Source: Patescibacteria group bacterium (GTDB taxonomy: Bacteria; Patescibacteriota; Microgenomatia; UBA1400; PJMF01). From it: 64,000 bases of DNA. The stretch is from positions 19,127-83,126 of the forward strand of contig JBGTEY010000003.1 of the NCBI GenBank assembly GCA_041747555.1, written 5' to 3'. A model generated the notes under the pieces. It ran no database searches. It was not told the DNA's origin and worked only from the letters and a program-made list of their open reading frames with translations. Shown here one piece after another: positions 18,858 through 49,477 of this stretch (position 1 is the first letter of the stretch; each line of letters begins with the position of its first letter). The translations under genes were made by a program, and so were the position numbers.

Positions 18858-20642
18858 TTATTTTTTCTCAATATTGAAAAATGCCCCGCCACATGGATTT
18901 CCAGACCACTGTGGAATTCTCATGTTTCCAGGCGCGCGCAAGTTGAAAGCTTTGCAAAACTCACTTCCACTCATACTGACTCCATTGATATTGACTGACG
19001 AAGTACTGCCATTTCCTTGCGTGACAGAAACGCTGTTGGCAGCCGATATTCCACCATACTTGCCCGCCACATCTCTGAGTTCTCCAAGACTATATGGATT
19101 GCCACCCCAACAGTCGGTGGTAACTGGGCTAATTCGCGCGGCTTCACCAGAATTGCCTTTGGTGATTATCAGGTGTGCGTTTACGATATCGGCCATTTCC
19201 TCTGGACTGAGCCAAGGGTTAGAGCGACCACACGTTGAACCACTACTACTATATCCTTCACGCCACCAGGATTTATACAACCAAGGTGAGCCGCCTATTT
19301 TCTCATACGCTTTGTCTAGAAAGTTTGATCCACCCGAACCATCGGTGGTATCCCATCCGCCAGTTTTAGTCCAACCACCGTGTGTTGAAGCATATTGTGT
19401 TGAAACTGGGTTTCCACCACCATCAACGAGGACCATACCCTTAGTTTCCCTAACTGCTTCTTCCCAGGCTCCGCCTTTTGGTGAGTTTTTAAATACCTGG
19501 CATTTTTCTGTGGTGCAGATTGAATTCTGACCATTACTTGTGTGTTTGATTGCAAATGTTCGAGCAGCAATCGCTTGTGCCTTGAGGACTTCTTTGGGCC
19601 AGCTGGCGGGAACTTCGTAGATTCTCATCAGATACCAATCCTCAAATGAGCCAGCGCCATGACCCTGGACGGTAATTTCTCCCATAACTGGATAATCTGT
19701 TTTAATTGATGTGCCTGGATAGTATGCATTTAGTATTTGCTCATAATTCTGCCCGCTCTTGGCTCTCCCCAATGCCCCATATTGGCTCATACCATTTCGA
19801 TGACTATATGCACCAAATGAAAAGATCGCAAAATGCCCACTCGGTGCACTTTCACGAAAACCAACGATAGAAGCCAATCGATCGTCTGCCAATTCGCTAT
19901 CACCACTCACAGTAAATCCTCCCGATCTAGAGTTAATAATTTCAGTTTGTCTTGCCGAAAGCTCTGCTATTTGACCACCAAGAACTTGCTGATAGTCCTT
20001 AGCCTTACCTATTTCACTTTTGAAAAAATCTGCCTGCTCATCAAGCTGCTTCTCGAGTCCTGCGAGTGTTATTTGATCTTGTTCGAGCTTGGTTTTGTCT
20101 TGTTCCAGAAGTGCGATGTCTGCGCCGATGGTTTGGATGAGCTTGTTGTCTTGGGCTTTAACAGAGCTTCGATATGCCAAATCCTTGGTGAGATCAGCTG
20201 CATCTTGATTAGAGAAAATCAATAGAAAGTCAGAGTTAGTGCGTAATTTTTTATACTGTTCAAAAATTCTTCTCGAAAGAATTTCGTACTGCGTTGCCAG
20301 ATCTTTTTCTCGAGAATCAATTTGCTTTGCGACTTCTTCGCTCTCCGCTTTTGCCCGAACCACCCCTGCGCGTGCGTTATTTATTCTATTTTCTAGATCA
20401 GAAACTTGCGACTCCAATGGCTTGGTGGCGTCTTCTGAGAGTTTTTTGAGGTGTTCCAACTCATCAATTTGTTGTTGCAGCTCAATCACTTCGTCGGCAC
20501 TTACTTGTTTTATTGGGGAATAAAGACCCATATATGAGCCTAAATTAAATACAGGCCACATATTTGAAATCGGCCCAAGCACCAATAAAAATCCCAATCC
20601 CAGAGCTAGCTTGGCAGGCAACCAACGTTTCATAGTATTCAC
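18858..20642 (-). CDS. SpoIID/LytB-domain protein with N-terminal signal and long coiled coil
   Basis: The C-terminal half contains AQAIAARTF and YASTHGGWT, matching the SpoIID YxSTxGG motif. The N-terminal ~250 aa is heptad-rich. Confidence 0.6.
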   Translation of the reverse strand: MNTMKRWLPAKLALGLGFLLVLGPISNMWPVFNLGSYMGLYSPIKQVSADEVIELQQQIDELEHLKKLSEDATKPLESQVSDLENRINNARAGVVRAKAESEEVAKQIDSREKDLATQYEILSRRIFEQYKKLRTNSDFLLIFSNQDAADLTKDLAYRSSVKAQDNKLIQTIGADIALLEQDKTKLEQDQITLAGLEKQLDEQADFFKSEIGKAKDYQQVLGGQIAELSARQTEIINSRSGGFTVSGDSELADDRLASIVGFRESAPSGHFAIFSFGAYSHRNGMSQYGALGRAKSGQNYEQILNAYYPGTSIKTDYPVMGEITVQGHGAGSFEDWYLMRIYEVPASWPKEVLKAQAIAARTFAIKHTSNGQNSICTTEKCQVFKNSPKGGAWEEAVRETKGMVLVDGGGNPVSTQYASTHGGWTKTGGWDTTDGSGGSNFLDKAYEKIGGSPWLYKSWWREGYSSSGSTCGRSNPWLSPEEMADIVNAHLIITKGNSGEAARISPVTTDCWGGNPYSLGELRDVAGKYGGISAANSVSVTQGNGSTSSVNINGVSMSGSEFCKAFNLRAPGNMRIPQWSGNPCGGAFFNIEKK

Positions 20643-20711: not shown

Positions 20712-21899
20712 ATGAGTGCGCGCCTAAACCTGCAGAAATTACTGCTTGTAGTCACCTTAGTCTTTTCATTTTTCTTGAGTGCTTTGGTGCCAACAAAAGT
20801 TGCGGCTCAAAATGCATGCAATCCCTCAATACTTGACCACAATATCGAGGCTACTTACTTTGACGATGATCCAGACAATTCGATGAATATTACGGTCAAT
20901 AATCTGATTAACGGATCACTTTATTCGATACGAGTTATCGACTCGACTGGACTTGCTCTATCTGATGTCCAAATAAATTCAGGTGGAAATGGTCAGATCA
21001 CCACTATTATAAGTGCATCACTCGATCCTGATGTTTTTGATTATGATGTTGGTCTGGTTGGATCAGTTCCTGGATTCAGGCGGGTTACACTTTTTGGCGA
21101 TGGAATAGGCGTATGTGAAATCGCTACATTTTATATTATTGAAGAAAGTCTCATTTTAGATGACTACGAAGTATATCAAAACATTGGCGGTCAACAATGT
21201 TCTGAGAAAAATGGAGGCTGTTTAAACACCACACAACCAATTGTTTTTGAGACAAGAATAATATCTGCTTCTACTGGGGATGGTGTACCCGACTTGAATA
21301 TTTTGCATAACAGGAGTGGGGCGGGCAATCAATTACCAGCAACATACCTTGGAAATGGTGTATATAGGAGTAGTCATCCCCCCATGGACGATGGAACATA
21401 CACCATGTACGTAGAGGAGAACGGAACATTAAGTAACCCAGACATAGGTGATTTTTCGTTTACCGTCTCAATTGACTGCGATTCTTGTGTCCCACCTGGA
21501 GACATTACTGACGATTCAGTCAATCCAGTCGAAGATATTTACAACTTTTGCAATCAAATCAACGACGCTTCTCAACGCGCTGACTGCCTTGACTGTGCTG
21601 GAGGTCGGGGTGATTACAACGGTGTCTGGACTGCAGTCGGCTGTATTTCAAGAGAGCCAACCAGCATTGCGAGGACCTTCATTAGAATTGGTCTCGCTAT
21701 GTCAGGCGGTGTTGCTTTGCTCATGATTCTTGGTGCTGGCTTTATCCTTGCTACATCAGAAGGAGACCCCAAGCGCACTTCTGAAGCCAAAGAAATGGTG
21801 ACTGCAGCGGTGGTCGGATTACTATTTGTGATATTCTCAGTTGTAATTCTACAATTTATTGGATTTACCATCCTACAAATACCTGGGTTCGGAGGATGA
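20712..21899 (+). CDS. Secreted Cys-rich protein with C-terminal VirB2/TrbC-like two-helix pilin module
   Basis: Signal peptide ending VAAQN, then a ~280 aa Cys-rich domain. The C-terminus IGLAMSGGVALLMILGAGFILATSEGDPKRTSEAKEMVTAAVVGLLFVIFSVVIL has the same TM1-charged loop-TM2 layout as the small pilin-like paralogs downstream. Confidence 0.5.
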   Translation: MSARLNLQKLLLVVTLVFSFFLSALVPTKVAAQNACNPSILDHNIEATYFDDDPDNSMNITVNNLINGSLYSIRVIDSTGLALSDVQINSGGNGQITTIISASLDPDVFDYDVGLVGSVPGFRRVTLFGDGIGVCEIATFYIIEESLILDDYEVYQNIGGQQCSEKNGGCLNTTQPIVFETRIISASTGDGVPDLNILHNRSGAGNQLPATYLGNGVYRSSHPPMDDGTYTMYVEENGTLSNPDIGDFSFTVSIDCDSCVPPGDITDDSVNPVEDIYNFCNQINDASQRADCLDCAGGRGDYNGVWTAVGCISREPTSIARTFIRIGLAMSGGVALLMILGAGFILATSEGDPKRTSEAKEMVTAAVVGLLFVIFSVVILQFIGFTILQIPGFGG

Positions 21900-21903
21900 T
21901 GAA

Positions 21904-22566
21904 ATGAATACCGGAGTACTTAAAGCAATACTTGCGCGACTCAGTCTTCACCTTCTTGCTGTCGTGGTGTTATTTGGTATTTCTCTGATCGGGAATCCTG
22001 CAAAAGTGTCCGCTCAAAACATATTGCAATGTGGCACAGCTTTTTATTCAGATGAAGACCCCCCACCAATATGCCAATGTAGTTCTGGGGAAAGTCCATA
22101 CTTTGGTGATCTCGTCTGTTGCGGCTGGGTTTTCTCAAATCCAGATACCGGACAGCTTGCATGTGTTAGCACAAACTCAAATCCTTTTGACCCAGATATA
22201 GAGGGTGGCGACATTATTATCACCGAAGGTGTCTCAAATGCTACATTTGACATTCTCAATCCACTCCAAATTGGTGGTGGGGAAAACATAAATGTCGAAG
22301 CAGCCTCAGACTTTGCGACAGATCTCTCCACCCCTGGCGGTATAGTCACTAGACTACTTGAATTTGCCTTTCCCTTGGCGGGGTTATTGCTGTTCCTCAT
22401 GCTTGTCTGGGGTGGATTCGAAATCTTGGCTGGATCTGCCACCAAAAAATCAGTTGATGCAGGAAAACAAAGAATTACCGCAGCAATTCTGGGATTTTTA
22501 CTCCTGTTTGCAACCTACTGGATAGGACAACTACTCGAGGTGGTTTTTGGGGTAGTGATTCTTTAA
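21904..22566 (+). CDS. Secreted protein with C-terminal VirB2/TrbC-like pilin module
   Basis: The start is taken at ATG 21904, preceded by GGAGGA; the ORF track's TTG at 21859 is unlikely. Signal peptide ...AKVSAQN. The C-terminus LAGLLLFLMLVWGGFEILAGSATKKSVDAGKQRITAAILGFLLLFATYWIGQ is the pilin-like module. Confidence 0.5.
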   Translation: MNTGVLKAILARLSLHLLAVVVLFGISLIGNPAKVSAQNILQCGTAFYSDEDPPPICQCSSGESPYFGDLVCCGWVFSNPDTGQLACVSTNSNPFDPDIEGGDIIITEGVSNATFDILNPLQIGGGENINVEAASDFATDLSTPGGIVTRLLEFAFPLAGLLLFLMLVWGGFEILAGSATKKSVDAGKQRITAAILGFLLLFATYWIGQLLEVVFGVVIL

Positions 22567-24253: not shown

Positions 24254-24694
24254 ATGGTAATCACCAATATGTTCACTAGAGGAAAATCTCAATCTGCACA
24301 AGTAGTACCTCATTTTTTTATGGTGGTTTTGGTATTTTTTGCCTTATTTTTTGGTCTGTCACATCCAGCGCAAGCACAATGCGATCCCGGCAATGGAAGT
24401 ATTAACCTTGGAGAATGTTTGCGATTGAGTAATGATCAAGGTGTAGGTGAAGTTTACGAAAGCCCTGCATTTTTGGTAAATTTAATCGTAAGAAATTTGT
24501 TTGTTGCTGGGGCAGTCATTCTATTCCTCATGGTATTTTATGCAGGGTTTCTCTTTGTATTTAAAGGCAAAAAAGGTGTTGAGGATGCAAAAGCCGTTGC
24601 CACCAATGCTATTATTGGGTTTGTGGTCATGTTTTCTGCATACTGGATCGTACAAATCATCGCGGTCGTCACGGGCACTAATATACAACTCTAA
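24254..24694 (+). CDS. VirB2/TrbC-like pilin paralog 1
   Basis: Signal peptide ...SHPAQA|QC, a short Cys-containing head, then TM1 (LFVAGAVILFLMVFYAGFLFVF), loop KGKKGVEDAK, and TM2. The real start may be ATG 24269. Confidence 0.55.
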   Translation: MVITNMFTRGKSQSAQVVPHFFMVVLVFFALFFGLSHPAQAQCDPGNGSINLGECLRLSNDQGVGEVYESPAFLVNLIVRNLFVAGAVILFLMVFYAGFLFVFKGKKGVEDAKAVATNAIIGFVVMFSAYWIVQIIAVVTGTNIQL

Positions 24695-24697
24695 AAC

Positions 24698-25159
24698 ATG
24701 AACATACCTACACCAGTACATACTTGGCACAAATTTGCTTCTAAAACACCATTTTTGATGGCCGCATTGCTCGTAGTTGTTGTTTTTTTCTCCGCATATT
24801 CGCCTGTTTTAGCACAGATTGATGATATTGGCACGATTGATGTACCACCTGGTGTTGAACAATACAACACAAGCTCTGGTGCCGATATTGGCCTCGTGTT
24901 TTTCATCTCAAGAATGATTAGACTTGCGACTCTTGTTGCTGGATTGTGGGTCACCGCAAATACCATGATGGCGGGATATGTCTATCTTTCATCACAGGGA
25001 AAAGCCGATGCACACGGGAGAGTTCGAGACATTCTAACCATGAGCACCATCGGTCTGGTTCTAATTGTGACTGCCTACACCGTTGCGGGACTTTTAAGCT
25101 TGTTGATTTTTGGCGATCCCCTTTTTATTCTGAATCCTACTATTGAAGGGCCAGCATGA
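24698..25159 (+). CDS. VirB2/TrbC-like pilin paralog 2
   Basis: Same architecture: signal ...SPVLAQ, TM1, loop SSQGKADAHGR, TM2. The C-terminal motif is FGDPLFILNPTIEG. Confidence 0.55.
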   Translation: MNIPTPVHTWHKFASKTPFLMAALLVVVVFFSAYSPVLAQIDDIGTIDVPPGVEQYNTSSGADIGLVFFISRMIRLATLVAGLWVTANTMMAGYVYLSSQGKADAHGRVRDILTMSTIGLVLIVTAYTVAGLLSLLIFGDPLFILNPTIEGPA

Positions 25160-25725
25160 TTTCAAACATCATAAACCGAATCAAGTCATTCGCAATTCAC
25201 ACCGCAGTGATACTTGTGGTGTTTTGTGTCCCATTTTTTATCAACGCTCCCGTAGCTCAAGCACAATGCACAGGACCCGAACACGCTGGAAATTGTGTTG
25301 ATAATCGCACATGCATCAACTATCAAGGAGCATGGGTGGCGTTCGGTGCTGAGTGCGGATCTTCTTCTATTGGTGGTGTTCGAGCCCCCCAAGGTGTACA
25401 TCAATATAATCTTCTTGCTGGCACATACGGCTCAACTACTGCCAGTGGCCTGGTTGTGTTTGCCTCTAGAGCTATGCAGCTTGCGAGCATAGTTGCCGGG
25501 ATTTTCATGATGATCAACTTGGTTCGTGCGGGCTTTATTTATATCACCAAATTTGACCAAACATCAGCGCATCAGGAAGTACGAGATCTCCTCACTTACA
25601 GTGTGGTCGGTCTAGTAATCATGGTTTCTGCGTATGCTGGAGGTGGATTGATTGGTCTGGTATTCTTTGGAGACGCCACATTTGTTCTCAGTCCAACACT
25701 TGAGGGAGCAGTTCCACCACCGTAA
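25156..25725 (+). CDS. VirB2/TrbC-like pilin paralog 3
   Basis: Signal ...APVAQA|QC and a Cys-rich head. The C-terminal FGDATFVLSPTLEG motif is shared with paralog 2. The start overlaps the upstream stop (ATGA). Confidence 0.55.
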   Translation: MISNIINRIKSFAIHTAVILVVFCVPFFINAPVAQAQCTGPEHAGNCVDNRTCINYQGAWVAFGAECGSSSIGGVRAPQGVHQYNLLAGTYGSTTASGLVVFASRAMQLASIVAGIFMMINLVRAGFIYITKFDQTSAHQEVRDLLTYSVVGLVIMVSAYAGGGLIGLVFFGDATFVLSPTLEGAVPPP

Positions 25726-25777
25726 TAGTTAGATCGCCATCTGGTTTAACAACAGGTAGCTGGTATATAATGCAAAT

Positions 25778-26152
25778 ATGAAACTTTTCGTACCACAGCT
25801 AATTGCACAATTTGGAGGAGGTTTTGAACCTCCTGTTGATAATACATTCACCCAAGGTGCTGATTCGACACCAGAGGCAAACTTAGAAGTTATCGTGTCT
25901 AATATGCTTGGTGTGGTGACAGTTTTTGCAGGATTATTTTTCTTAATTTACTTTCTTATCGCTGCGTTTAAATGGATTTCTGCTGGTGGCGACACAGGCA
26001 AAGTTCAGGCTGCGCGCGATCAAATCATGAATGGAATTCTTGGATTAGTCATGGTGGTTGGCACGTACACAATTGTCGCCATAATTGGCGTCATCGTTGG
26101 ATTTAATATCTTGAATCCAGCAGCAATTATTAGAGATACATTGGTACCGTAA
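25778..26152 (+). CDS. VirB2/TrbC-like pilin paralog 4
   Basis: 124 aa with the loop SAGGDTGKVQAARDQ between two hydrophobic helices. The ATG lies 6 nt downstream of tggtatataat, suggesting a leaderless start. Confidence 0.5.
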   Translation: MKLFVPQLIAQFGGGFEPPVDNTFTQGADSTPEANLEVIVSNMLGVVTVFAGLFFLIYFLIAAFKWISAGGDTGKVQAARDQIMNGILGLVMVVGTYTIVAIIGVIVGFNILNPAAIIRDTLVP

Positions 26153-26611
26153 ATGAAAATAGCTGCAAATATCAATCAAATTCTCCGTACAAATCTAGGA
26201 ATCATATTTGTAGGACTGGTTATTCTACTGATGACAACATCCCCTGTGTCTGCGCAGATCACCAATCCAGTTATCGGTGAATTAGGTCAGGGCATCGGTG
26301 ATACGAGCGGCGACGAAAAATCAGCAGAGCTATTTGCCAACTTTTTTGTGAGCATTTGGCAAGCAGTGATTATGTTTGGTGGATTAACGGTGTTAGTGTT
26401 CTATATTTGGGGCGCATTTGAGTGGATTACTGCAGGAAGCGATACGAGCAAAGCAGAAAAAGCTCGATATAGAATCACCAATGCAACAATTGGCCTCATA
26501 CTGCTTATTAGCACATTTGTCATTGTTGGTTTTGTCAGCACCGCGCTCTTCGGAGAAGAGTTCCAAATTCTTAACTTAAGCCTACCAACCACACAAATTG
26601 GCGCACCATAA
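26153..26611 (+). CDS. VirB2/TrbC-like pilin paralog 5
   Basis: Signal ...SPVSAQ and loop TAGSDTSKAEKARYR. It is adjacent to the upstream stop. Confidence 0.55.
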   Translation: MKIAANINQILRTNLGIIFVGLVILLMTTSPVSAQITNPVIGELGQGIGDTSGDEKSAELFANFFVSIWQAVIMFGGLTVLVFYIWGAFEWITAGSDTSKAEKARYRITNATIGLILLISTFVIVGFVSTALFGEEFQILNLSLPTTQIGAP

Positions 26612-26623
26612 ATAAGGAAAACC

Positions 26624-27031
26624 ATGCTACTCTCCACTCTTATCGCTCAAGCAGAAATTAACCTCGGGCAAACAGCGATTGATCAAGGACTGCCTGGCAC
26701 CGCAGATGTTGATACCGCAGATTATGCCGGCGCCTTTGGAGTAATTCTTGGCAATATCATGAGTTTTGTGATGGTAATTGCCGCTCTTGCGGTACTTTTA
26801 TACCTCATCTGGGGTGCTGTTGAATGGATTACTGCTGGAGGAGATTCCGGAAAAGTAGAAAAAGCACGAACCAAAATGATGAATGCGATTATCGGTATTA
26901 TTGTTTTGTCTGCCGTAACAGCGATCTTTATGCTGATTCAAGAATTTTTAGGTCTGGAATTGCTTGATTTCGGAGGTGGTGGTCGATTTGATGATGTTGA
27001 CCTTGGGGGTGGTGGAGATGGCAGAAATTAA
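26624..27031 (+). CDS. VirB2/TrbC-like pilin paralog 6 (Gly/Asp-rich C-terminal tail)
   Basis: Loop TAGGDSGKVEKARTK, with C-terminal GGGGRFDDVDLGGGGDGRN. Confidence 0.5.
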   Translation: MLLSTLIAQAEINLGQTAIDQGLPGTADVDTADYAGAFGVILGNIMSFVMVIAALAVLLYLIWGAVEWITAGGDSGKVEKARTKMMNAIIGIIVLSAVTAIFMLIQEFLGLELLDFGGGGRFDDVDLGGGGDGRN

Positions 27032-27090
27032 TCATCACCTCTGCATCAACACCGCGATCGCTGCATTCAGCGAAATCAAAACCCTCAACT

Positions 27091-27124
27091 AAAGTAAAGC
27101 ACTTGACGTACGAAAATAAATCCA
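27091..27124 (+). promoter_or_regulatory. Sigma70-like promoter (TTGACG-18 nt-TATAAT) with downstream AAGGAG SD for paralog 7
   Basis: The sequence cttgacgtacgaaaataaatccatgtataatg is followed by ttaaggagtcaaATG at 27153. Confidence 0.5.
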
Positions 27125-27152
27125 TGTATAATGAATTAGTTGAAGTAAGTAC

Positions 27153-27605
27153 TTGAGATTAAGGAGTCAAATGACAAGACCAACATTCGATCGAGTAAAA
27201 CAGTATGCTGGATATGTTGCTACCTCAGCAACTGCCCTCGCACTATCTGCAAGAGGTGTTCTCGCCCAAGATGGAATTGATATCGGCACAGTTGAAACTG
27301 GAACTGGTTTTGCAACTGACCTTGGCTCAGTGATTACCGCTGTTCTTAGTTTTGTAATGATCATCGCTGCTCTGCTCGTCTTTCTCTACCTCATCTGGGG
27401 TGGAATTGAGTGGATCACATCTGGTGGTGACAAAGGAAAAACAGAAAGTGCTCGAAACAAAATTACGAGTGCTGTCGTGGGTATGATTATCCTCGCTGCT
27501 TCCTATGCAATACTGCTGCTCATCCTCAGATTCATCGGATTTGAAGACCTCGCAGATGTATTCGGTCAAGCATCAACTATTAATGAAGCTGGAGGCGCTG
27601 AATAA
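27153..27605 (+). CDS. VirB2/TrbC-like pilin paralog 7
   Basis: Signal ...GVLAQ and loop TSGGDKGKTESARNK. A canonical SD is present. Confidence 0.55.
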   Translation: MRLRSQMTRPTFDRVKQYAGYVATSATALALSARGVLAQDGIDIGTVETGTGFATDLGSVITAVLSFVMIIAALLVFLYLIWGGIEWITSGGDKGKTESARNKITSAVVGMIILAASYAILLLILRFIGFEDLADVFGQASTINEAGGAE

Positions 27606-27644
27606 CTTCCTGTATCACAACATTGCTTGTGAAAATAATAAAAA

Positions 27645-27667
27645 CCCCTCTCCGGAGGGGTTTTTTA
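27645..27667 (+). terminator. Rho-independent terminator closing the pilin array
   Basis: The stem cccctc-tccg-gagggg is followed by tttttt. Confidence 0.7.
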
Positions 27668-27739
27668 GTGCTGCAGGATTAGTCTGATCACACCCCACTC
27701 CACTCGCCTGATATTTAATAATCAGGTATACTACAGTTC

Positions 27740-28177
27740 ATGAAACCAACTCAAGAAAAGAAATCGCCTTTAAAACCGAAGGTCTCTGCGCTGGTTACAA
27801 ACGGCACCGCGTTCATCCTTAGTTTCTTTATTTTTGCCCAGCAAGCATTTGCTCAAAGCGCTTGGTCTGGCGTTTGTGTTGGTGGAGATGACAATGATGT
27901 TGCCACAATTCAAGGTCTAGAGTGCCTCATTGCCAATGTGTTTCAAGTAATTTTAACCGTTATTGGCTTGGCTGGTTTTGTAATGATGATTGTCGGTGCG
28001 TTCCGCTGGCTAGTTTCAGGTGGAAATACTAAGGGCGTCGAGTCTGCGCGCAATACCATTACCTTCGCTGTAGTAGGGTTGGTTGTGGCACTGAGCGCAT
28101 TTATCGTTCTCAACTTGATCGCATCATTCACTGGCGTCAACGTTATCACCTCGTTTGTGATTCCTGAGTCAACGTAA
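27740..28177 (+). CDS. VirB2/TrbC-like pilin paralog 8
   Basis: Signal ...AFAQS and loop VSGGNTKGVESARNT. The ATG is 7 nt downstream of tatact, giving a leaderless-type layout. Confidence 0.55.
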   Translation: MKPTQEKKSPLKPKVSALVTNGTAFILSFFIFAQQAFAQSAWSGVCVGGDDNDVATIQGLECLIANVFQVILTVIGLAGFVMMIVGAFRWLVSGGNTKGVESARNTITFAVVGLVVALSAFIVLNLIASFTGVNVITSFVIPEST

Positions 28178-28234: not shown

Positions 28235-31200
28235 GTGTTGAAAAACCTCTTCTCGCTAGCGGTATTTTTTGTGATGGTCGTCTTTGGACTATTCTCGGCA
28301 AATGCTGCACAAGCACAAACTGTGGGCTCACACCTAGGTGTAGGAGACATTGGTGGCCAAATTAGTAACATACAGGTGCTCAGGGCAAATGGTGCGGGTC
28401 AAGGTTTTCCGGTAACTGCTCTACTCAATGTCAACACCGCTGGCAATAACGAGCAAAGCATGCGAGATTTGCAGTTTGAGATTACTGAAGCGGGCTTTTA
28501 TCCCATTATTCGTATTACCCATGTGTGTGATCCTGCGCTGACTGAACCCTTTGTTAGAGCGGCTATTGATAATATTAACGCTACCTTTACTCAAGAACAC
28601 ACTATTGTTTATGGAAATGAAGTCAATAATGCTGCGGCAGAATGCCCTGACCCAGAGCAATATGTTCGGGAATACAACTGGATTAATGATATGGCCAATG
28701 TGGTGCCGGCAGCACTTGACTTTTACAACGGAGATTTCCCTACAAGCACATTCTTTACTGCTGGAAATGGAAGTGCAGGCACAATCTATAGCGGTAACGG
28801 ACCATTTGCTGCAAATGCCTATGGCTGTGTTGGTACGCTTGACCCAACTTGCGAACCTGCTACCACCGACACTCACGAACAAGGATATGCTCGCTATTCA
28901 AGTGCAGACTATTACATCCTCACCGAATTCTCACTCTCGCCCGAGGGTCGTGTGCCCGGAGCTCCAGACACCAACCTCGAAAAAGTTATTGAATTCATTC
29001 AAGGTCGCGCTGGAGACACTGGCGCCCGTTACATCACTCCCCTCGTCAGAAACGTCTGCAACAATGAAGGAGAATGGCTTTTGTACGTCAACGGCAGGCT
29101 ATTCACCATGAATAGTACCGAGGTTACCGATAATTGTGAGGGAAATCCTGGCGGGTATGGGGATGGATACCCATTTTATGATGTGAGTGATTCAGATTTT
29201 TACATTACTCCAATCAAATCACTGGGGCTGAACATCGATCCAGCGGCCAAATCTGCAGCAATTCGATCAGAACTTGCTCAATCTGGATACGAAGCATACT
29301 GCGCAATGGATGGAATAACGGTTCGCCCTGAATATAACTCAATGGACCTGATCAATCGCTTTTTGGAATTGCAAACAGAAGGGCGTGCCGATCCACTCCT
29401 TGGCGCAACCGCCAACTCTGTAGCGGTTCTAGACTTTACTACTGCTAAAACACCTGTTTGGCGAGATGTCGGTGTTGGCACTCGCAGATTTATGATGACA
29501 TCCCTTGAGGAATATTTTTCGTTCAAAGACGTGTATGACGTACCAGGCTCAACAAACGCAACTCGAGAAGTGGCTTCAGGAGCTATAAACTCACTCCTCA
29601 CCACACACCAACGCTGTGTTCAGTCTGCAAAAACAATCGTCGCAACCCAATTAATGTGTGAAAAACTTGAAGATCTTGGATCGTCGTGCGCATTGCGATC
29701 GAGAGAGGTCCCTGGGACCAACTATACGATGCAAACAATTATTGATGAGATGAATAAAGTAGCAGAAGCAACGGGCAATCACCCTAGAGCTGGAGAGGAA
29801 GTAGCATTTTGCGATGATGTTATTTACGACTTTGAGGAAATTTCTGAGATCACGCAAGAATTCAGGAAAGGTATCTTGAACGTCAATCTGCACATGGATC
29901 GAGCGTATAGATTAGCCTTTTTGGTTGCGCGGATTACAACACTTAGCCCTGGAGATGGCACGTTTGCGAATATGTTTAACTTCTTTACCGGAACCACCCG
30001 ATCTGGAATACCTCGAGATGAGGTGCTCATTATTGCTTTTAAAGTGCCAGATTTTGCTACAAACAGGGGTGGTGGTGAATCGAGTGGCAGCTACTACTGG
30101 GAAGACGCAGCATACTTAACCAGAAACGCACTCATAACTAAAGATAGAATCGCAGAAATAAATGACGAACTTAGAGCTGCGAAACGAAATGAGATCGAAG
30201 CAAACGCCAATAGTGCTGGAAATCGCTCGCAAGGTACGGGTGACAAGATTTTCTGCATCGATGGCGCATTTCCTGATGGAAACGGCTCACAAGCATGCAA
30301 AACACCCGTCGGCAAAGCTGTCGTCGACATTATTAACGGCAATGGCACCGCATGCTCAGAAGATATTGAGCCAGCAAATCAAATCTCTGATGCCGCCGGA
30401 CTCAATCCTATCCCCCCAGAGCAAAACACGGGCAAAATTTTCACCGCAGAGAATGGCGGAGATGTACTGATGAATCTATTTTTCGGAGATGGCACCCACC
30501 TCAGAAATGACGTCTACGATCCTCAAGCAGCCCGCACCACCCCCCAAGGTGCGACCTTTGGACAATTTCAAACAGTCTGGGATATCACACCAGATAGCTG
30601 GCCACCCACAGTTGGAAGTACTTCTGTTGAATTTTACTTAACATACCCGGCTGGATTTGAACAAGAATACATTGAACAAGTGTTAGCCGGCACCTTTTTT
30701 ACCCAACAAGAACTGGCTAACATCAGGGGGGAGAATCTAGAGATACCCGCTGATCCCGAACTTAAGGATCGATTCTCGATGATTGGTGGGCTGTTTGGAT
30801 TAAACACGGGCTCAATAAGTCATACATTTACCGATCCAGATGACTGCGAACTCGTAGAGCCAGAACCCATCATTGATCCAGAAACAGGTGAAGAAGTTAT
30901 CTATCCATACATTGATCCTGAAACCAAAAAACTCATCACAGGCCCTCCTCCACCCACTGAGGTTTGTAAAGAAAAAACCTTTTCGATCTCAATCGATACC
31001 GACCCTGTCGACTCGGTGCAGATTCTCGGCGCACGAATTGGCTTCTGGTCACGAACTGCACAACTCAAAATCAGCAGCTACTTCAGTCAGTCGCACGCAT
31101 ACCTTCTCTCTTGTAGCACCACAGAAGAATTCTTATTGGGAAATTGTGCCGGTGGTGCTCCCCCAGTTATTGCGGATCCAGTCCCAGATATTCCTCCGGT

Positions 31201-31759
31201 TGCTCGGTGTGAGGAGGGTAGTCCAAGAATTACCAGCGGCGAAAACGCACAGCATGTTTTCTCACTTGCCGATCCAAACTGTACCATCTATGAGGAGAGC
31301 GTTCACAACATTCCGGGCTGGAAAAATGAAAATGAATCCTATAGACCATGTGACGAACTGTACTCATATGTAGCCTGCACCTACCCCAACACGCTTATTG
31401 AAAATCAGGTGAATGCAGCAGGGGAATTTGTAGACGAAGGCGTAATGACCGCATGCGAATATGTCGTCCAAAGAGCGCAAGCTGCCGGCATCAGTCCCCG
31501 ATTCGCACTTGCAATGTGGGGTGAGGAGTCCGGATTTAGTAATTATGGCGGACCTGATTTGGGAGCAATATTTGTGGATTATCCCAACCTTGGTACACAA
31601 ATGACGGCATTTATTGGGGCGGTGAATGAGAACGATAATTACTTGGATTTTCTGGTTCAATACTCTGAAGGAACTTCGAATGTTGGCACGAACCGATTCT
31701 GCTCAAATCCCTGGTTCGTTGGTCGACTAAAAGAGTACCACGAATTTTTAGGACCTTGA
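28235..31759 (+). CDS. Large secreted protein (1174 aa), hypothetical; possible lysozyme-like C-terminal region
   Basis: Signal peptide MLKNLFSLAVFFVMVVFGLFSANAAQAQ with a GTG start. It is Cys-rich and contains short IDPET repeats. The C-terminal region ...RAQAAGISPRFALAMWGEESGFSNYGG loosely resembles glycoside-hydrolase/lysozyme ExxS motifs; this is a weak match. Confidence 0.5.
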   Translation: MLKNLFSLAVFFVMVVFGLFSANAAQAQTVGSHLGVGDIGGQISNIQVLRANGAGQGFPVTALLNVNTAGNNEQSMRDLQFEITEAGFYPIIRITHVCDPALTEPFVRAAIDNINATFTQEHTIVYGNEVNNAAAECPDPEQYVREYNWINDMANVVPAALDFYNGDFPTSTFFTAGNGSAGTIYSGNGPFAANAYGCVGTLDPTCEPATTDTHEQGYARYSSADYYILTEFSLSPEGRVPGAPDTNLEKVIEFIQGRAGDTGARYITPLVRNVCNNEGEWLLYVNGRLFTMNSTEVTDNCEGNPGGYGDGYPFYDVSDSDFYITPIKSLGLNIDPAAKSAAIRSELAQSGYEAYCAMDGITVRPEYNSMDLINRFLELQTEGRADPLLGATANSVAVLDFTTAKTPVWRDVGVGTRRFMMTSLEEYFSFKDVYDVPGSTNATREVASGAINSLLTTHQRCVQSAKTIVATQLMCEKLEDLGSSCALRSREVPGTNYTMQTIIDEMNKVAEATGNHPRAGEEVAFCDDVIYDFEEISEITQEFRKGILNVNLHMDRAYRLAFLVARITTLSPGDGTFANMFNFFTGTTRSGIPRDEVLIIAFKVPDFATNRGGGESSGSYYWEDAAYLTRNALITKDRIAEINDELRAAKRNEIEANANSAGNRSQGTGDKIFCIDGAFPDGNGSQACKTPVGKAVVDIINGNGTACSEDIEPANQISDAAGLNPIPPEQNTGKIFTAENGGDVLMNLFFGDGTHLRNDVYDPQAARTTPQGATFGQFQTVWDITPDSWPPTVGSTSVEFYLTYPAGFEQEYIEQVLAGTFFTQQELANIRGENLEIPADPELKDRFSMIGGLFGLNTGSISHTFTDPDDCELVEPEPIIDPETGEEVIYPYIDPETKKLITGPPPPTEVCKEKTFSISIDTDPVDSVQILGARIGFWSRTAQLKISSYFSQSHAYLLSCSTTEEFLLGNCAGGAPPVIADPVPDIPPVARCEEGSPRITSGENAQHVFSLADPNCTIYEESVHNIPGWKNENESYRPCDELYSYVACTYPNTLIENQVNAAGEFVDEGVMTACEYVVQRAQAAGISPRFALAMWGEESGFSNYGGPDLGAIFVDYPNLGTQMTAFIGAVNENDNYLDFLVQYSEGTSNVGTNRFCSNPWFVGRLKEYHEFLGP

Positions 31760-41910: not shown

Positions 41911-44900
41911 GTGTATCAAAAATTTAATATACCTTTCAAAAAATTCGAGAATAAACTCGACTCTCTACCGCTTATTGAACAATTTTTCTCATTTAGATTA
42001 AAAGACTTGGATAGATTTAGAGCACTGAGTGAGCTTGAGCAAGAGGCGGTCATTTCTGGCAAGATTAGCCAGCTGCAATCATCTACAAGTGCGATAACCG
42101 CACTTGAAAAAAAACTCGAAGAAACTCACCGATTGTCGCTCGCTCCACCCACCGGCATTGGCCTTGCCTTAGAAAAATTATCTGCTCTTGAGAGAGATAT
42201 TTTAAGACTCGGCCAGACGTTACCTGCAGGCTCCCCAGAACTTAGTCGACTTCAGCAATCGGTGGCAATTGCTCGAGTCCAACTAGAAAAACAACGCACT
42301 GCAACTGCTCGTTTTATTGATGTTGACTTTCAGTCTCAAGCTGGTCTTGCGGCTCTGAAATCAAGACTCGATCCCTTAGCGCAAGATCAGTCTCGAGTTG
42401 GTGCAGAGATAGACACAATAAAATCTCAAGTAGGAGGGCTTGAACAGTCGGTTTCTCGATTTGAAAGCACAACCAGCCCAACATTTATTGCTCAAACAGA
42501 AGCAGCTACCACACTTCATCAACTTCGCAATAAACTTTTGCGCCAAATAGAGCGGTCTCCATCAAGTGTTCAATTGCGAGATATTGAATCAGCTATTCAA
42601 CACATAGAGCAGCTTATAACCACTGAACAACAAGCAGTTAGACAAGCTGAAGTTGGTGGAATAGATTCTAGCTCAACTTCGCAACCTACCCAAAGCATGG
42701 GCAAGAAACTACTAGATCAAGCCCCTTCGGTCAAAGCTCTCGAAGAACTCAGGGGGCAACTCAAATCAATCTTACGGAGGCGTGGTCGTGATCAAACAGT
42801 GGTAAGGGAAATACAAGAGCAAATTACCGCTGTTCATGAGCGGTTAATCAATTTAAACAGAGCTCGGCAGGCAGCATTTGGTCAAGGAAATACCGCTTCA
42901 CTTTCTGCTCTCGCTGCTATTCGAACCGATCTAGATGCATTGGGCGACCGACAACCGCGAACTTTATCCGCTATCCAAGCTATTAAGGGTCAGGTAGGAA
43001 CGATTGAGCGAAAAGTAATCGAAGATCAAAATAATTCCAGCTCCCCACTTGAGGCACAAACAGATGCAATTTTATCACTCGGGCAACTCAGAACCCAACT
43101 CGAACATCAAATAAAACTATCACCTTCGAACTCTAAACTGCGCAGGATAGAAAATGCAATTCAAAAAATAGAACAGCAAATAATTCGTGAGCAACGCGCT
43201 ATTAAGAGAATTGAGGCTGGAAACAATGATCCCAATTCAATTAATACCGTTGTCTCAAGCGCAGGAGTTAGTTTTTTTGAACAATCACCCTCAATTATCG
43301 CTCTTGAGGAGCTAAAAAACCAACTACGACTGCTCTCTGGCATGCAGGATCAATATCGCATGGAGGTCATCGATATTCAACAAAAGATTTCTGCAGTTCA
43401 TAAACGATTAGAAGACACGCGGAGATCACTTGCAATTCCTTTCGAATTGTCTGGGCTCAGCGAGAAGGACATAGAAGTCGCTACACTTCTTGAACTAGTT
43501 AGAGCTCATGAAAAAAATCGACTATCTATTGAAGTGGCTGCAGGGATAAGAGAAAAGCTCCTTCAGGGTAGAAGCGCGCAGGAGATCGCACTATTGCTTG
43601 CATATCTGGAGCAAGGGAGTCGCGTGAGTTTGGGATATCAGGATAGCGCGGGCGATGGTGCATATGACGTTGGGAGTTTAGATGATTACAGCTTGAGTGC
43701 AATTGCTGGAGCTGACGAAATGCTCTCTGAGGGTGGTGGTGCATCGACTGGAATTGCTCAAAGATTTAACAATTGGCGTCATGGGAGTAACCGATCAAAA
43801 TTACAAAGAGGTTTTAATTACGCGACCAACAAATTAATGTCTCGAGGTGCGCAAGCGCTGTCTCCATGGGCAGCGGGTGCGCTCGCCATATCAAACAGAT
43901 TAATTGGTGAAGAAAATACCAATCGAGTTATCGGTGGCACACTCGCACTCATGATTGGTACCACCGTTGCCGCACTCAGCTCTTGGGGAGGCCGAATTGG
44001 CGCTCTCCTTGGTGGAACCCTTGGTGGTGTGGTGGGCTCGTATGTACCGGTCTTGGGCACAGCTGTTGGCGCAGTAGGCGGTGGTATCGCGGGTGGCTTG
44101 GCTGGGCATGTCTATATTCAGCCAGTTCTGGATAAAATTTTTGGCACCGGAACAGCGGAGTCAAGCGCGGGCTTTTCTGGTGCAAACTTAGGGAACCTCA
44201 ATCTTGGATCGCCTTCTGTGGCAGGTCAACTTCCGGGCGGAGTTGGTGCCAGCACTGGTTTGGGTGTCTCGAGCTCAGCAACACCTGGGGTAACTTTGGG
44301 TTCTAGTGGAGCCACTACTGCTGCTATGGCACCAACGCTGGGCACGGTTGCAGGCACCGGAGGTGCTGGTGTCGCGAGTGCCGGACTTACAGGAGCGGGC
44401 AATGCTGGATTAGGCACAGGAGTGGGCGCCACCCAGGCTAGTATTTGGGAAACATTAGTTAAATCACTGGGTGAGTTCTCTGTTGGAACTGTAGCACCCA
44501 TAGGCGCGATGGTGTTTGGCATAACATCGTTCACATTCACAATGTGGATTATTTTTGCTGCATTTTTAGCACCACTTCCCCTTGAGCCAGGCGCTGGATC
44601 TCAAACTCCGGGGTTTATCGAGGGATTTCAAGGATGTTGGCCGACAACGGGCACAATTAGCGGATATTTAACGTATTCATCTGATGGATCACAGCATGCA
44701 ACTATGCCAGGTGGATATGGTGGATTTGCTGGGCCAGGCACTGCTATCGATATTTCTACCGGTAGCAATCAGCCACCAATTTACTCCCCGTATTCTGGTA
44801 CAGCTGATTTTTATCCCAATGGTCATGGAATAAGCACTCTATACGGTACTCATGTGGTTCTCACCACCCCTGATTTTGTAATTATTTTTGCTCACATGAG

Positions 44901-45918
44901 AGATTTTGGTTCCGCAGCTACGATGAATGGACCAACAATGGATGTACCAATCATAGCTGGCCAACAAATAGGATTTGTAAATAGTACGGGCAACTCCACC
45001 GGAAACCACCTCCACTATGAAGTAATAGGAGACCCACCCATTACTATCCTAAGTCTTTTGCCTCTGAGCAACAGTTTTAAACAAGCTATCACTGTGAGTG
45101 AAGAAACAATTTTTGGTCTCCCCGTCAGCTCCACCGACTGCGCAATTAAAAATCTTGGTGATGCAACAGGGTTTATGGCCATCGGACCAAAAGAGATAAA
45201 TAATTTATTAATGTCTAGCACTGCAGAAATCAATCAAGGACCAATTAGAACCTGCACTTGGCAACAAAATCGAAATCTAGAAGCTGCAATTAATGCAAAC
45301 TTCTTTAATGCCAGTTTACTCCCCGTTGGTATTGCAGGAAACAATCCTGCCAAGTACTGGGAGAATGCAGATAATAGAGACATCACTTTTATTGAACAAA
45401 TGCAATCATTAGTGGTAACCTCTTCAACCGACTCAATCATTATGACCAGACCAGATCCCGACTTAGCGTATTCTCCCGCGAATGACTTTCCAATTGATCT
45501 ACCCGAATATAGCTCCGGCATCACCGGTCTCTATGTTGAGGGTGATAGCAGCACAAGTGATGTAAGGAATAGAACGCTAATAGGAACTGGAGTTGCTTCT
45601 GCTGATTGCTCAACTGAGTACGCAGGTGATGAGGTGATCTTCCTCCTAGTAATGAATAGCGCGACATTTGATGAAATTGAGCAAGAGGCTAGACGATGCG
45701 GAGCTACCGAAGTTATTCATCTCGATGGTGGTGGTTCAAGTGCATTTTGCACGAATGATCCTAACTACAATTTCGCGACAACAACTCCTGTTCCGGTAAA
45801 TGTTGGACTGTACCGCGCTGAGTTATTTTCAATTATTGAGGAAGATGGCGAGACCATCATTCAACCAGAACCAGGTGGAGGCGCGAACGACCCCGAACCA
45901 CCAATCGCACCAATCTAA
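41911..45918 (+). CDS. Multidomain cell-wall hydrolase candidate: coiled-coil tandem repeat, Gly-zipper segment, M23 peptidase, phosphodiester-glycosidase-like C-terminus
   Basis: Two ~186-aa repeats lie at aa 145-330 and 331-515 (ALEELRGQLK/ALEELKNQLR; ITAVHERL/ISAVHKRL). A Gly-zipper segment follows: GGTLGGVVGSYVPVLGTAVGAVGGGIAGGLAG. The M23 domain carries GTAIDISTG...PYSGTADF and GNSTGNHLHYEV (HxH). The C-terminus has EVIHLDGGGSSAF, the NAGPA-type DGGGSS motif. Confidence 0.65.
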   Translation: MYQKFNIPFKKFENKLDSLPLIEQFFSFRLKDLDRFRALSELEQEAVISGKISQLQSSTSAITALEKKLEETHRLSLAPPTGIGLALEKLSALERDILRLGQTLPAGSPELSRLQQSVAIARVQLEKQRTATARFIDVDFQSQAGLAALKSRLDPLAQDQSRVGAEIDTIKSQVGGLEQSVSRFESTTSPTFIAQTEAATTLHQLRNKLLRQIERSPSSVQLRDIESAIQHIEQLITTEQQAVRQAEVGGIDSSSTSQPTQSMGKKLLDQAPSVKALEELRGQLKSILRRRGRDQTVVREIQEQITAVHERLINLNRARQAAFGQGNTASLSALAAIRTDLDALGDRQPRTLSAIQAIKGQVGTIERKVIEDQNNSSSPLEAQTDAILSLGQLRTQLEHQIKLSPSNSKLRRIENAIQKIEQQIIREQRAIKRIEAGNNDPNSINTVVSSAGVSFFEQSPSIIALEELKNQLRLLSGMQDQYRMEVIDIQQKISAVHKRLEDTRRSLAIPFELSGLSEKDIEVATLLELVRAHEKNRLSIEVAAGIREKLLQGRSAQEIALLLAYLEQGSRVSLGYQDSAGDGAYDVGSLDDYSLSAIAGADEMLSEGGGASTGIAQRFNNWRHGSNRSKLQRGFNYATNKLMSRGAQALSPWAAGALAISNRLIGEENTNRVIGGTLALMIGTTVAALSSWGGRIGALLGGTLGGVVGSYVPVLGTAVGAVGGGIAGGLAGHVYIQPVLDKIFGTGTAESSAGFSGANLGNLNLGSPSVAGQLPGGVGASTGLGVSSSATPGVTLGSSGATTAAMAPTLGTVAGTGGAGVASAGLTGAGNAGLGTGVGATQASIWETLVKSLGEFSVGTVAPIGAMVFGITSFTFTMWIIFAAFLAPLPLEPGAGSQTPGFIEGFQGCWPTTGTISGYLTYSSDGSQHATMPGGYGGFAGPGTAIDISTGSNQPPIYSPYSGTADFYPNGHGISTLYGTHVVLTTPDFVIIFAHMRDFGSAATMNGPTMDVPIIAGQQIGFVNSTGNSTGNHLHYEVIGDPPITILSLLPLSNSFKQAITVSEETIFGLPVSSTDCAIKNLGDATGFMAIGPKEINNLLMSSTAEINQGPIRTCTWQQNRNLEAAINANFFNASLLPVGIAGNNPAKYWENADNRDITFIEQMQSLVVTSSTDSIIMTRPDPDLAYSPANDFPIDLPEYSSGITGLYVEGDSSTSDVRNRTLIGTGVASADCSTEYAGDEVIFLLVMNSATFDEIEQEARRCGATEVIHLDGGGSSAFCTNDPNYNFATTTPVPVNVGLYRAELFSIIEEDGETIIQPEPGGGANDPEPPIAPI

Positions 45919-46940: not shown

Positions 46941-48158
46941 ATGCGCGAGCACCCAATTCCCACAGATATCACCAACTATCGTTTTCATATAATCGGAACG
47001 ATGACGCTCAAGCAGTTTGGTGAGGTTGCGCTCGGAGTAATTGTCGCGTTTTTGCTGTACATGACCAATTTGCCTGTGGTAGTTAAATGGCCATTGATCA
47101 TTTTTTCAGTCGGACTTGGGGGGGCTGCTGCCTTCATCCCTATTGCCGAGCGTCCGCTCGATCACTGGATCGTGACATTCTATAAAGCACTTTACAAACC
47201 CACTCAATTTTTCTGGAAACGAACAGAGCGAATTCCAGAACCTTTCCTATTTAAACCACGTGATAATGAAAAACCTCAAGAAGAAGAGCTTGATTTAACA
47301 CCCTACAAGCGTCAGAGAATTAAAGAATATCTTCACTCTGTTCCCTCTGAAACACCCTATAGTCCTTCGTTTACAGAAGATGAAACTGCCAGAATGCAAA
47401 GTATTCTTGACTCATTTTCAACAACGCCCGTAACTTCCACATCGTCAACGCCAATTCGTGAAAACGCCGTCAAACCAACGCTTTCGGTAAGGGTGCGGGA
47501 CATTCGAGCACCAGAATCTAACGATCTTACTACACCAATTCTTTCCCAAGCAGCACCGACTACTGCCATTCTTCCTCAAGCAACTGAAGAATCTCCCATA
47601 AGCCCAGCAGCACTTTTTGAAACATCAGAATTACTACCCGATCAAGAACAAAGCGCGAGCAAACGCTTGATTGACCAAACACCTCAAGTATCCACACCGT
47701 CAGAACTCAACCAAACCCATCAAGATCACACTATTATTCATTCAACACAAGATACTAAAACTAATACACCAACTGTCGAAATAGCCGCTGATGAGATAAT
47801 TCAAGTTGCGGCACCCTCGCGCACCTCAAGTCAATCAAGGCATATTCCTGAAAGTACCACCAACGACGACGATCTCTCCTTATTTCCAGATCTTCCAACA
47901 GAACCAAACAAAATTGTTGGTATAGTGGTCACTCAAAACAATGAACTTATCCCCGAAGCAATTATTGAAGTAAAAAATGACCGTGGAGAAGTGCAGCGGG
48001 CTGTAAAAACTAATGCCTTGGGTCAATTTTTCATCACAACTCCTCTCATGGATGGTGATTACACGATAACAATTGAAAAAGAAGACTTTGTATTTGAGCC
48101 GTATCAAATTCAACTCAGTGGCCAAGTCGTTCGCCCGATCAAAATACAGAGCTTGTAA
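46941..48158 (+). CDS. PrgI/VirB3-like membrane protein fused to Pro/Thr/Ser-rich linker and C-terminal beta-sandwich (carboxypeptidase-regulatory-like) domain
   Basis: The N-terminus PIPTDITNYRFHIIGTMTLKQFGEVALGVIVAFLLYM matches the PrgI-family pattern (VPKDIRxYxEKxxGGLTLRQF + TM). The C-terminus IVGIVVTQNNELIPEAIIEVKNDRGEVQRAVKTNALGQFFITTPLMDGDYTITIEK resembles a CarbopepD_reg fold. Confidence 0.5.
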   Translation: MREHPIPTDITNYRFHIIGTMTLKQFGEVALGVIVAFLLYMTNLPVVVKWPLIIFSVGLGGAAAFIPIAERPLDHWIVTFYKALYKPTQFFWKRTERIPEPFLFKPRDNEKPQEEELDLTPYKRQRIKEYLHSVPSETPYSPSFTEDETARMQSILDSFSTTPVTSTSSTPIRENAVKPTLSVRVRDIRAPESNDLTTPILSQAAPTTAILPQATEESPISPAALFETSELLPDQEQSASKRLIDQTPQVSTPSELNQTHQDHTIIHSTQDTKTNTPTVEIAADEIIQVAAPSRTSSQSRHIPESTTNDDDLSLFPDLPTEPNKIVGIVVTQNNELIPEAIIEVKNDRGEVQRAVKTNALGQFFITTPLMDGDYTITIEKEDFVFEPYQIQLSGQVVRPIKIQSL

Positions 48159-49474: not shown

Positions 49475-49477
49475 ACG

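Follow-up and report, generated by a model that had tools for sequence, protein, structure and literature searches.

In Patescibacteria, genes for pilins of type IV secretion systems (T4SS) lie in arrays of 2-11 genes, and 441 such arrays have been catalogued, most abundantly in Microgenomatia and Saccharimonadia (Quinonero-Coronel et al. 2025, PMC12102498). The six arrayed pilins of Southlakia epibionticum, SEML1_0014-0019, are individually essential (PMC10633639; review PMC12857230), and in the only genetically tested member of Patescibacteria the T4SS with its pilin array is essential for growth on the host (PMC10633639). The array considered here lies in a 64,000-nucleotide stretch of a Microgenomatia genome (Patescibacteria group bacterium, assembly GCA_041747555.1, contig JBGTEY010000003.1, positions 19,127 to 83,126 of the forward strand), called the window below, in which positions are counted from the first letter. 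It consists of ten paralogous genes, and the first two, referred to as gene 1 (395 aa) and gene 2 (220 aa), encode modular proteins in which a sizeable Cys-rich domain precedes the membrane hairpin that they share with eight small pilins. Patescibacteria account for a large share of bacterial diversity and their cultivated members live attached to host cells; gene 1 and gene 2, widely conserved, are the best candidates for the part of the apparatus that contacts the host, combining a conserved assembly module with a variable, disulfide-stabilised outward domain.

The locus resembles the described VirB2-like arrays of Patescibacteria in its matches to Pfam family PF18895, in its tandem but divergent paralogs, in the vicinity of PrgI/VirB3 and VirB4 genes and in its closeness to dnaA. 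It departs from them in two respects. The Southlakia pilins, which match both PF18895 and PF04956 (PMC10633639), are small, with PF18895 located within residues 38-180, whereas window positions 1 and 2 carry Cys-rich ectodomains of ~280 and ~100 residues. Moreover, the positional orthology of the window's paralogs, documented below, is unreported in the papers on those arrays. While pilin arrays as such were already known, large modular members and positional orthology are absent from the literature searched, mostly outside subscription journals, in which no mention was found of VirB2-type pilins with large grafted domains.

With the VirB2/TrbC/TraA pilins (PF04956) of F, pED208 and T pili, gene 1 and gene 2 share a signal peptide, a hairpin with a short polar loop, and VirB3 and VirB4 genes alongside. 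Those pilins are small single-module proteins, whereas gene 1 and gene 2 have large, folded N-terminal domains (predicted mature sizes ~362 and ~183 aa), show no PF04956 match and belong to a monoderm host. The F pilus is 87 Å wide, with five subunits in each stacked layer; the N- and C-termini of its pilin lie on the exterior and the lumen is lined by the loop between the helices, and the pED208 pilin has 64 residues (PMC5018250). A domain grafted onto the N-terminus of such a pilin would therefore face outward.

Three other systems invite comparison. In Gram-negative T4SS, VirB5 is both tip and nucleator, and pilus growth is believed to proceed from the base, under a tip complex of VirB5 (PMC12857230). 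The likeness of gene 1 and gene 2 to VirB5/TraC concerns the proposed role only, that of a low-copy component, facing outward, for nucleating or capping the pilus and touching the target. No homology was detected: VirB5-family models gave no Pfam match to either protein at E <=1, no VirB5/TraC structure figured among the top 50 Foldseek matches of either structural model, and gene 1 and gene 2 are predicted beta domains on a pilin hairpin, whereas VirB5 is a soluble helical-bundle protein without a pilin module. Type IV pili and type II secretion also have modular or minor pilins, such as Streptococcus sanguinis PilB and PilC or GspK, in which a bulky domain is grafted onto a conserved polymerisation module and which are found at low copy at or near the tip. 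However, their fold is unrelated, with a single N-terminal hydrophobic helix, a prepilin-peptidase leader and the graft on the C-terminal side. The polarity of gene 1 and gene 2 is opposite, with an AxA-like, Sec-type site and a C-terminal assembly module in place of the prepilin leader, N-terminal alpha-1 helix and C-terminal extra module of that class. Finally, Pam pili (PamA/PamB, with the RbmA-like anchor PamR) are surface filaments specific to the candidate phyla radiation, made of immunoglobulin (Ig)-like domains with paired Cys and assembled by donor-strand exchange (bioRxiv 10.64898/2026.03.03.709456). Gene 1 likewise has predicted Ig-like domains with paired Cys, and PamR also has fibronectin type III (FnIII) domains arranged in tandem and a C-terminal transmembrane (TM) anchor. 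Nevertheless, published descriptions of their architecture set Pam pilins apart, as proteins with a nine-strand sandwich, a donor linker strand and a truncated Ig domain that lack a helical hairpin and are encoded in a chaperone-containing operon and not in a T4SS array, the TM anchor of PamR is a single helix, and identity with gene 1 or gene 2 is unlikely on these grounds.

Architecture of the two modular pilins

An earlier reading of the letters of the window (the original prediction) had described, between 20712 and 22566, two secreted proteins with N-terminal signal peptides and Cys-rich extracellular domains, fused to the same TM1-loop-TM2 module as the small pilins. Both open reading frames (ORFs) were found at these positions, and their parts can be laid out as follows, using AlphaFold2 (AF2) models and their predicted local distance difference test (pLDDT) values.

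20712..21899, + strand: gene 1, modular VirB2-like pilin of 395 aa, array position 1; ORF with stop TGA 21897-21899
20712..20810, + strand: gene 1 signal peptide, residues 1-33; basic n-region, hydrophobic stretch 4-32, putative cleavage between VAA and QN
20811..21146, + strand: gene 1 predicted Ig-like beta-sandwich 1, residues 34-145 (C36 and C135 conserved); AF2 strands 41-143, block pLDDT mostly >90
21147..21497, + strand: gene 1 predicted Ig-like beta-sandwich 2, residues 146-262 (C163, C170, C256 and C259 conserved); AF2 strands 147-252
21498..21542, + strand: gene 1 low-confidence linker, residues 263-277; pLDDT <50 at 266-277, 12.6% identity to homologs
21543..21656, + strand: gene 1 four-Cys neck, residues 278-315 (C280, C292, C295, C311; motif GxWTAVGCI); invariant columns in 63 homologs
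21657..21896, + strand: gene 1 pilin hairpin, residues 316-395; AF2 helix 316-348, loop TSEGDPKRTSEAKE, helix 353-387, conserved C-terminal IPGFGG
21891..21896, + strand: GGAGGA Shine-Dalgarno sequence of gene 2, with a 7-nt spacer to ATG 21904
21904..22566, + strand: gene 2, modular VirB2-like pilin of 220 aa, array position 2; ATG start
21904..22014, + strand: gene 2 signal peptide, residues 1-37; hydrophobic stretch 3-36, putative cleavage between VSA and QN
22015..22188, + strand: gene 2 predicted small Cys-rich beta domain, residues 38-95, with 6 Cys; AF2 strands 45-88, pLDDT >90
22189..22323, + strand: gene 2 pre-hairpin segment, residues 96-140; consensus FDxLNPLxI...LSTPGGIV, short AF2 helices
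22324..22563, + strand: gene 2 pilin hairpin, residues 141-220; AF2 helix 144-176, loop SATKKSVDAGKQR, helix 181-215

The C-terminal modules carry the link to the small pilins. Hydropathy places the loops ATSEGDPKRTSEAKE and SATKKSVDAGKQR between hydrophobic helices (~322-348 and 359-387 in gene 1, ~146-176 and 190-215 in gene 2), and PF18895 (T4SS_pilin) is the top Pfam match of all ten proteins of the array over their C-terminal ~65 residues, covering residues 331-383 of gene 1 (E 2.5e-4) and 147-203 of gene 2. Most database homologs of both proteins have a precomputed match to the same family, which was also detected at E <=0.01 in 119 of 131 array members from 12 genomes. As an independent test of homology, a hidden Markov model (HMM) was built from the eight small paralogs only and run against gene 1, gene 2 and 200 composition-preserving shuffles of each C-terminus: the scores were 62.1 bits for gene 2 (over residues 127-220) and 30.8 bits for gene 1 (over residues 318-387), while the shuffles reached at most 5.9. 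These scores, together with the PF18895 matches, confirm at the level of sequence profiles that the modules are homologous to the small pilins, well above chance. The predicted sharing of one module is thereby upheld in a qualified form, the modules being paralogous and not identical, since gene 1 is 31% identical to gene 2 and 16-25% identical to the small paralogs.

Similarity to pilins outside Patescibacteria is faint. PF04956 (TrbC/VirB2) matches neither gene 1 nor gene 2, one paralog in the window matches it weakly (E 0.0094), and 5 of the 131 array members match it, with a best E of 2.8e-5. When the ten-paralog alignment and that of the gene 2 family were each used as a profile against PDB sequences, no pilin came up, only chance TM-helix matches or nothing. 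In NCBIfam, a weak similarity was seen to the 'Mbov_0395 family pilin-like conjugal transfer protein' of Mycoplasma integrative and conjugative elements (ICEs; E 7e-5 and 4e-3).

At the other end of both proteins, basic residues followed by ~20 hydrophobic residues make up the n-, h- and c-regions of a Sec-like signal peptide, in agreement with the original prediction. The Ala-Gln pair at the putative cleavage site is aligned across all ten paralogs, Ala32 of gene 1 being invariant among them and Ala37 of gene 2 at least 90% conserved in an alignment of 62 homologs. A signal peptide plus two TM helices point to a topology with the N-terminus out, the loop in and the C-terminus out, which is consistent with a head displayed outside the cell.

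What precedes the hairpin differs between the two proteins. The gene 1 model, built with 63 homologs (pLDDT 85.3), consists of a signal helix, two beta-sandwiches, a linker, a small neck (two short helices and a beta-hairpin at ~279-313) and the helical hairpin, whereas that of gene 2 (pLDDT 85.1) has a signal peptide, a small beta domain, a conserved helical segment and the hairpin. The anticipated Cys-rich character is borne out, with ten Cys in gene 1, all invariant or at least 90% conserved across the 63 homologs, and six in gene 2, three of them in columns at least 90% conserved among its 62 homologs, in a family whose consensus has six. The gene 2 head is predicted to be a small domain of three-disulfide type. 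The fold searches that had been suggested brought up no lectin or other known binding fold. Against PDB, Foldseek matched the gene 1 model to generic tandem Ig-like domains (E 1e-5 to 1e-6, TM-scores 0.2-0.34), including transglutaminase C-terminal barrels, filamin, TEP1/C3 macroglobulin domains, RbmA, intimin D0-D1 and SiiE, and found no match for the gene 2 model at E <=0.001. When the gene 1 ectodomain alone was compared by phmmer with 1.84 billion representative proteins, six matches were obtained, four of them orthologs of ~400 aa and one a 3941-aa RTX-type protein, whose Big_13 Ig-like repeats domain 2 weakly matches. One match, to P0245, was set aside as a spurious similarity to fn3 repeats, and the search gave no function to transfer to gene 1. 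The gene 1 head is best described as a predicted bacterial Ig-like tandem without a recognisable lectin or enzyme fold.

The gene 1 protein has an exact match in public collections (P0001), besides ~190 homologs, as does gene 2 in its 220-aa form (P0121), besides 265 homologs. That gene 2 starts at ATG 21904 and not at TTG 21859 (which would give 235 aa), as had been proposed, is supported by the spacing of the GGAGGA sequence, by the lack of a motif of this type at the TTG, by the public 220-aa form and by ortholog junctions, an ATG being located -1 to +7 nt from the upstream stop in 53 of 79 distinct ones. Starting at the TTG would add an acidic peptide, MDLPSYKYLGSEDDE, ahead of an otherwise typical signal peptide. 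Around 21885-21906, gene 1 ends in ...GGA GGA TGA, which gives its C-terminal GFGG, and the Gly-Gly codons serve as the Shine-Dalgarno sequence of gene 2 as well; most gene 1 orthologs end in GFGG or a close variant, and a Shine-Dalgarno-like motif is present at 46 of the 79 junctions. In a scan for promoters and terminators around the two genes, promoters did not exceed shuffled expectation, and the scan was not used as evidence.

Conservation and order of the array

The remaining members of the array follow on the same strand.

24254..28177, + strand: small pilin paralogs, positions 3-10, eight proteins of 124-189 aa, identified by PF18895 and by alignment
24254-24694, + strand: position 3
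24698-25159, + strand: position 4
25156-25725, + strand: position 5
25778-26152, + strand: position 6
26153-26611, + strand: position 7
26624-27031, + strand: position 8
27153-27605, + strand: position 9
27740-28177, + strand: position 10

Relatives of gene 1 were found in 153 species-level genomes, labelled Pacebacteria, Woesebacteria and Microgenomates. In 84 loci that were fetched, ORFs were classed with three profiles, and 23 of the arrays proved complete. A gene 2-type ORF directly follows the gene 1-type ORF in 76 of 81 cases, and small pilins come next wherever the locus extends far enough, with 8-10 of them per complete array. The best matches of the window's paralogs in these arrays share their position in 23 of 23 cases for positions 1-4, with consistent one-step shifts beyond, and same-position orthologs are closer to each other than most paralogs within the window. 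This positional orthology, with the conserved order and size pattern, indicates that the array is a set of old, non-interchangeable genes.

Conservation is concentrated in the assembly module. Mean identity to homologs is 66.7% in the hairpin of gene 1 and 72% in that of gene 2, falls to 49% in the gene 1 neck and 37% in the gene 2 pre-hairpin segment, and is lowest in the ectodomains (18.5% and 21.6% for the two Ig domains of gene 1, 28% for gene 2). Among the small paralogs, positions 9 and 10 are the most conserved per unit length, at 59% identity. Gene 1-type ORFs range in length from ~280 to 510 aa and gene 2-type ORFs from 104 to 543 aa, and many tblastn matches to gene 1 span only residues from ~150 or ~277 onward, which together show that it is the heads that turn over, the assembly module staying constant.

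Two of the small pilins, at positions 6 and 8, begin without a long hydrophobic signal peptide and have instead a leader of ~10 residues ending in LIAQ. A similar short leader (M..LIAQ followed by FG.GF.PP) is kept in most position-6 orthologs of the 23 other genomes, suggesting that this paralog is exported or processed by another route. Many records of related loci (L006-L084) bear the title 'uncultured Pseudomonadales bacterium', and a few name Limisphaerales, Methylococcaceae or TM6; they contain a pilin locus of Patescibacteria type with the same synteny and look like mislabelled metagenome-assembled genomes.

A possible role in host contact

Starting from the homology, architecture, genomic context and conservation pattern demonstrated here, we would give a probability of roughly 0.55 to the view that gene 1 and gene 2 are low-copy T4SS subunits displayed outward, at a tip, as a cap or as adhesins, and in contact with the host. 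Each protein of the array would be exported by Sec and its signal peptide probably cut after the conserved Ala, while the C-terminal hairpin would remain membrane-embedded, its two ends outside the cell and its short loop on the cytoplasmic side. The hairpin would then act as an assembly module by which the protein joins the eight small paralogs in one pilus or conduit, a step presumably carried out by the VirB4 ATPase on a VirB6-like platform, to judge from Gram-negative systems. The ectodomains would project outward, in gene 1 as two disulfide-stapled Ig-like sandwiches on a four-Cys neck and in gene 2 as a small six-Cys domain, and the two proteins would be specialised subunits of low stoichiometry (tip, cap or surface-decorating adhesin) that touch the host. 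Such a specialised, low-copy role is suggested by ectodomains that are bulky, single-copy, fixed at positions 1-2 and diverging much faster than the hairpins. In a survey of Patescibacteria no PrgB-type adhesin was detected (PMC12102498), and one may speculate that gene 1 and gene 2 fill an adhesin or VirB5-like function for which these systems have no recognised gene. Of the adhesin or tip domain on a pilin scaffold that had been predicted, the ectodomain-on-hairpin architecture is real and conserved, while the adhesin or tip role is a proposal; incorporation into a pilus, stoichiometry and adhesion are its speculative elements.

Several points weigh against this view. The assignment to a tip or to low copy is based on steric reasoning and gene order only, and no experiment shows an extracellular filament made from any Patescibacteria T4SS pilin. 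With 21.5 bits for gene 1 and 26.4 bits for gene 2, the PF18895 matches lie under the gathering score of the family, 26.6, which four of the eight small paralogs exceed (26.8-35.2 bits). Foldseek cannot separate the hairpin from other helical hairpins, the best pilin match being 8dfu, the Aeropyrum conjugation pilus, at E 4.3. The loop of gene 1 is net negative, so that the positive-inside rule adds no independent support to the topology. Finally, Foldseek, Pfam and phmmer revealed no lectin, enzyme or other known binding fold or ligand site in either ectodomain, and Ig-like sandwiches are generic spacers as often as adhesins.

The main competitor, rather unlikely in our estimation yet to be taken seriously, is that the hairpin is only a membrane anchor, and that gene 1 and gene 2, perhaps with all the other members of the array, stay in the cytoplasmic membrane as components of the T4SS channel or of a wall-spanning stalk, carrying Ig-like spacers across the wall instead of polymerising into a pilus. 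Gram-positive-type T4SS generally lack pili (PMC12102498, PMC12857230), which would be in accord with such a static arrangement, as would the weak similarity to the Mbov_0395 family noted above, suggestive of a monoderm membrane component. RbmA is among the fold matches of gene 1, and PamR, from the unrelated Pam pilus, has been proposed to tether a filament through its tandem FnIII domains and C-terminal TM anchor (bioRxiv 10.64898/2026.03.03.709456). However, a plain anchor would have no need of position-specific hairpins that remain 67-72% identical across species while the rest of the protein drifts to ~20%, and the TrbC/VirB2 matches in array members and in the Southlakia pilins also speak against it. 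At the other extreme, gene 1 or gene 2 might be the abundant subunit of a pilus coated with Ig-like domains over its whole length. The N-terminus of VirB2-type pilins does lie on the filament exterior, and few hairpins of the array are as well conserved as those of gene 2 type. Nevertheless, by our own steric reasoning an ectodomain of 280 residues on every subunit would be crowded in a filament of F-pilus dimensions, and eight small paralogs with individually conserved hairpins are available to form the shaft, which makes a decorated major pilin improbable.

Variation between interchangeable proteins was suggested for Patescibacteria arrays (PMC12102498), along the lines of the Bartonella Trw proposal, with the paralogs serving as alternatives in antigenic variation or host-range switching. 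Low identity of the paralogs to gene 1 (16-31%) and ectodomains that differ between species would be expected from it. Yet order, size pattern and positional orthology are kept across the 23 other genomes with complete arrays, a finding that argues for a heteromeric structure involving all ten paralogs, and each of the six Southlakia pilins is essential. Antigenic variation or host versatility was therefore rejected as the meaning of the array and has in our eyes only a slight chance of being correct. Slighter still, to the point of being negligible, is the chance that an unrelated gene for a secreted protein was joined to a pilin gene by a frameshift or an assembly error. The exact protein is present in both NCBI and Logan assemblies, and its ~190 homologs mostly have a similar length, keep the ten Cys and align without interruption. 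A gene-fusion artefact was refuted on this basis, and judging by sequence comparison the architecture is not a product of gene calling, for homologs of similar length (most 375-450 aa) with the same C-terminal module occur among the relatives from 153 species-level genomes.

A bolder form of the outward-display reading can be put forward tentatively, with the odds somewhat against it. In Microgenomatia, the ten hairpin paralogs might be non-interchangeable parts that build up, in a set order, a heteromeric T4SS filament or conduit, in which gene 1 and gene 2 form the distal end and their fast-evolving Ig-like and Cys-knot heads recognise the host and set host range, as a VirB2-derived replacement for both the VirB5 tip and PrgB-type adhesins. 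If true, this would represent a new architectural class of conjugative-type pilus.

Secretion genes and other neighbours

By its gene content the locus is a chromosomal, origin-proximal T4SS of monoderm type, as known in Patescibacteria. PrgI/VirB3-like, VirB4-like and M23 hydrolase genes are found 20-29 kb downstream of gene 1 and gene 2 on the same strand, and dnaA and dnaN also lie downstream on it. Genes around the array are listed below.

18858..20642, - strand: SpoIID-domain protein of 594 aa with a coiled-coil N-terminal half; PF08486, E 3e-16; divergent from gene 1
28235..31759, + strand: secreted 24-Cys protein of 1174 aa with a signal-peptide-like N-terminus; no Pfam or NCBIfam match
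41911..45918, + strand: M23 peptidase and NAGPA-domain protein of 1335 aa, candidate T4SS cell-wall hydrolase; PF01551, E 3.2e-8; PF09992, E 5.8e-6
46941..48158, + strand: PrgI (VirB3-like) protein; PF12666, E 6.9e-7, 30.2 bits, above cut-off; two TM segments
48194..51607, + strand: VirB4-like ATPase in two same-frame ORFs (48194-49474 and 49478-51607), by NCBIfam and Pfam

The first of the two VirB4 ORFs matches NCBIfam VirB4_plasma (E 6.2e-9) and corresponds to the N-terminal part, while the second contains the P-loop domains (TraG P-loop, AAA_10, CagE_TrbE_VirB). They are separated by TAA 49472-49474 and one further codon, an interruption that may reflect a truly split gene, a site of read-through or an error in the sequencing. 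VirB6/PrgH-like and VirB8/PrgL-like components are described in the literature as hard to detect in Microgenomatia. By position and topology, candidates for them are a 562-aa protein (32923-34611) with a signal peptide and ~7 TM segments and a 327-aa protein (45936-46919) with one N-terminal TM segment, neither of which has a Pfam match.

The 1174-aa protein probably belongs to the same apparatus. A protein of this type comes after the pilin array in the three other loci readable that far, and size-matched counterparts of 1118 and 1210 aa stand after the array in loci L002 and L003. On the other side of the array, the SpoIID-domain protein neighbours gene 1 in all four loci inspected (L001-L004) and may work with the apparatus in remodelling the cell wall.

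The segment that separates gene 2 from the small pilins (22628-24227) is variable. In the window it contains an undecaprenyl-diphosphate synthase gene (uppS) and a gene of the amino-acid-kinase fold. The same segment holds a full mevalonate-pathway block and a sigma factor in L004 and is empty in L002, where all ten array genes are contiguous, which indicates that uppS and the kinase gene are a local insertion in the window.

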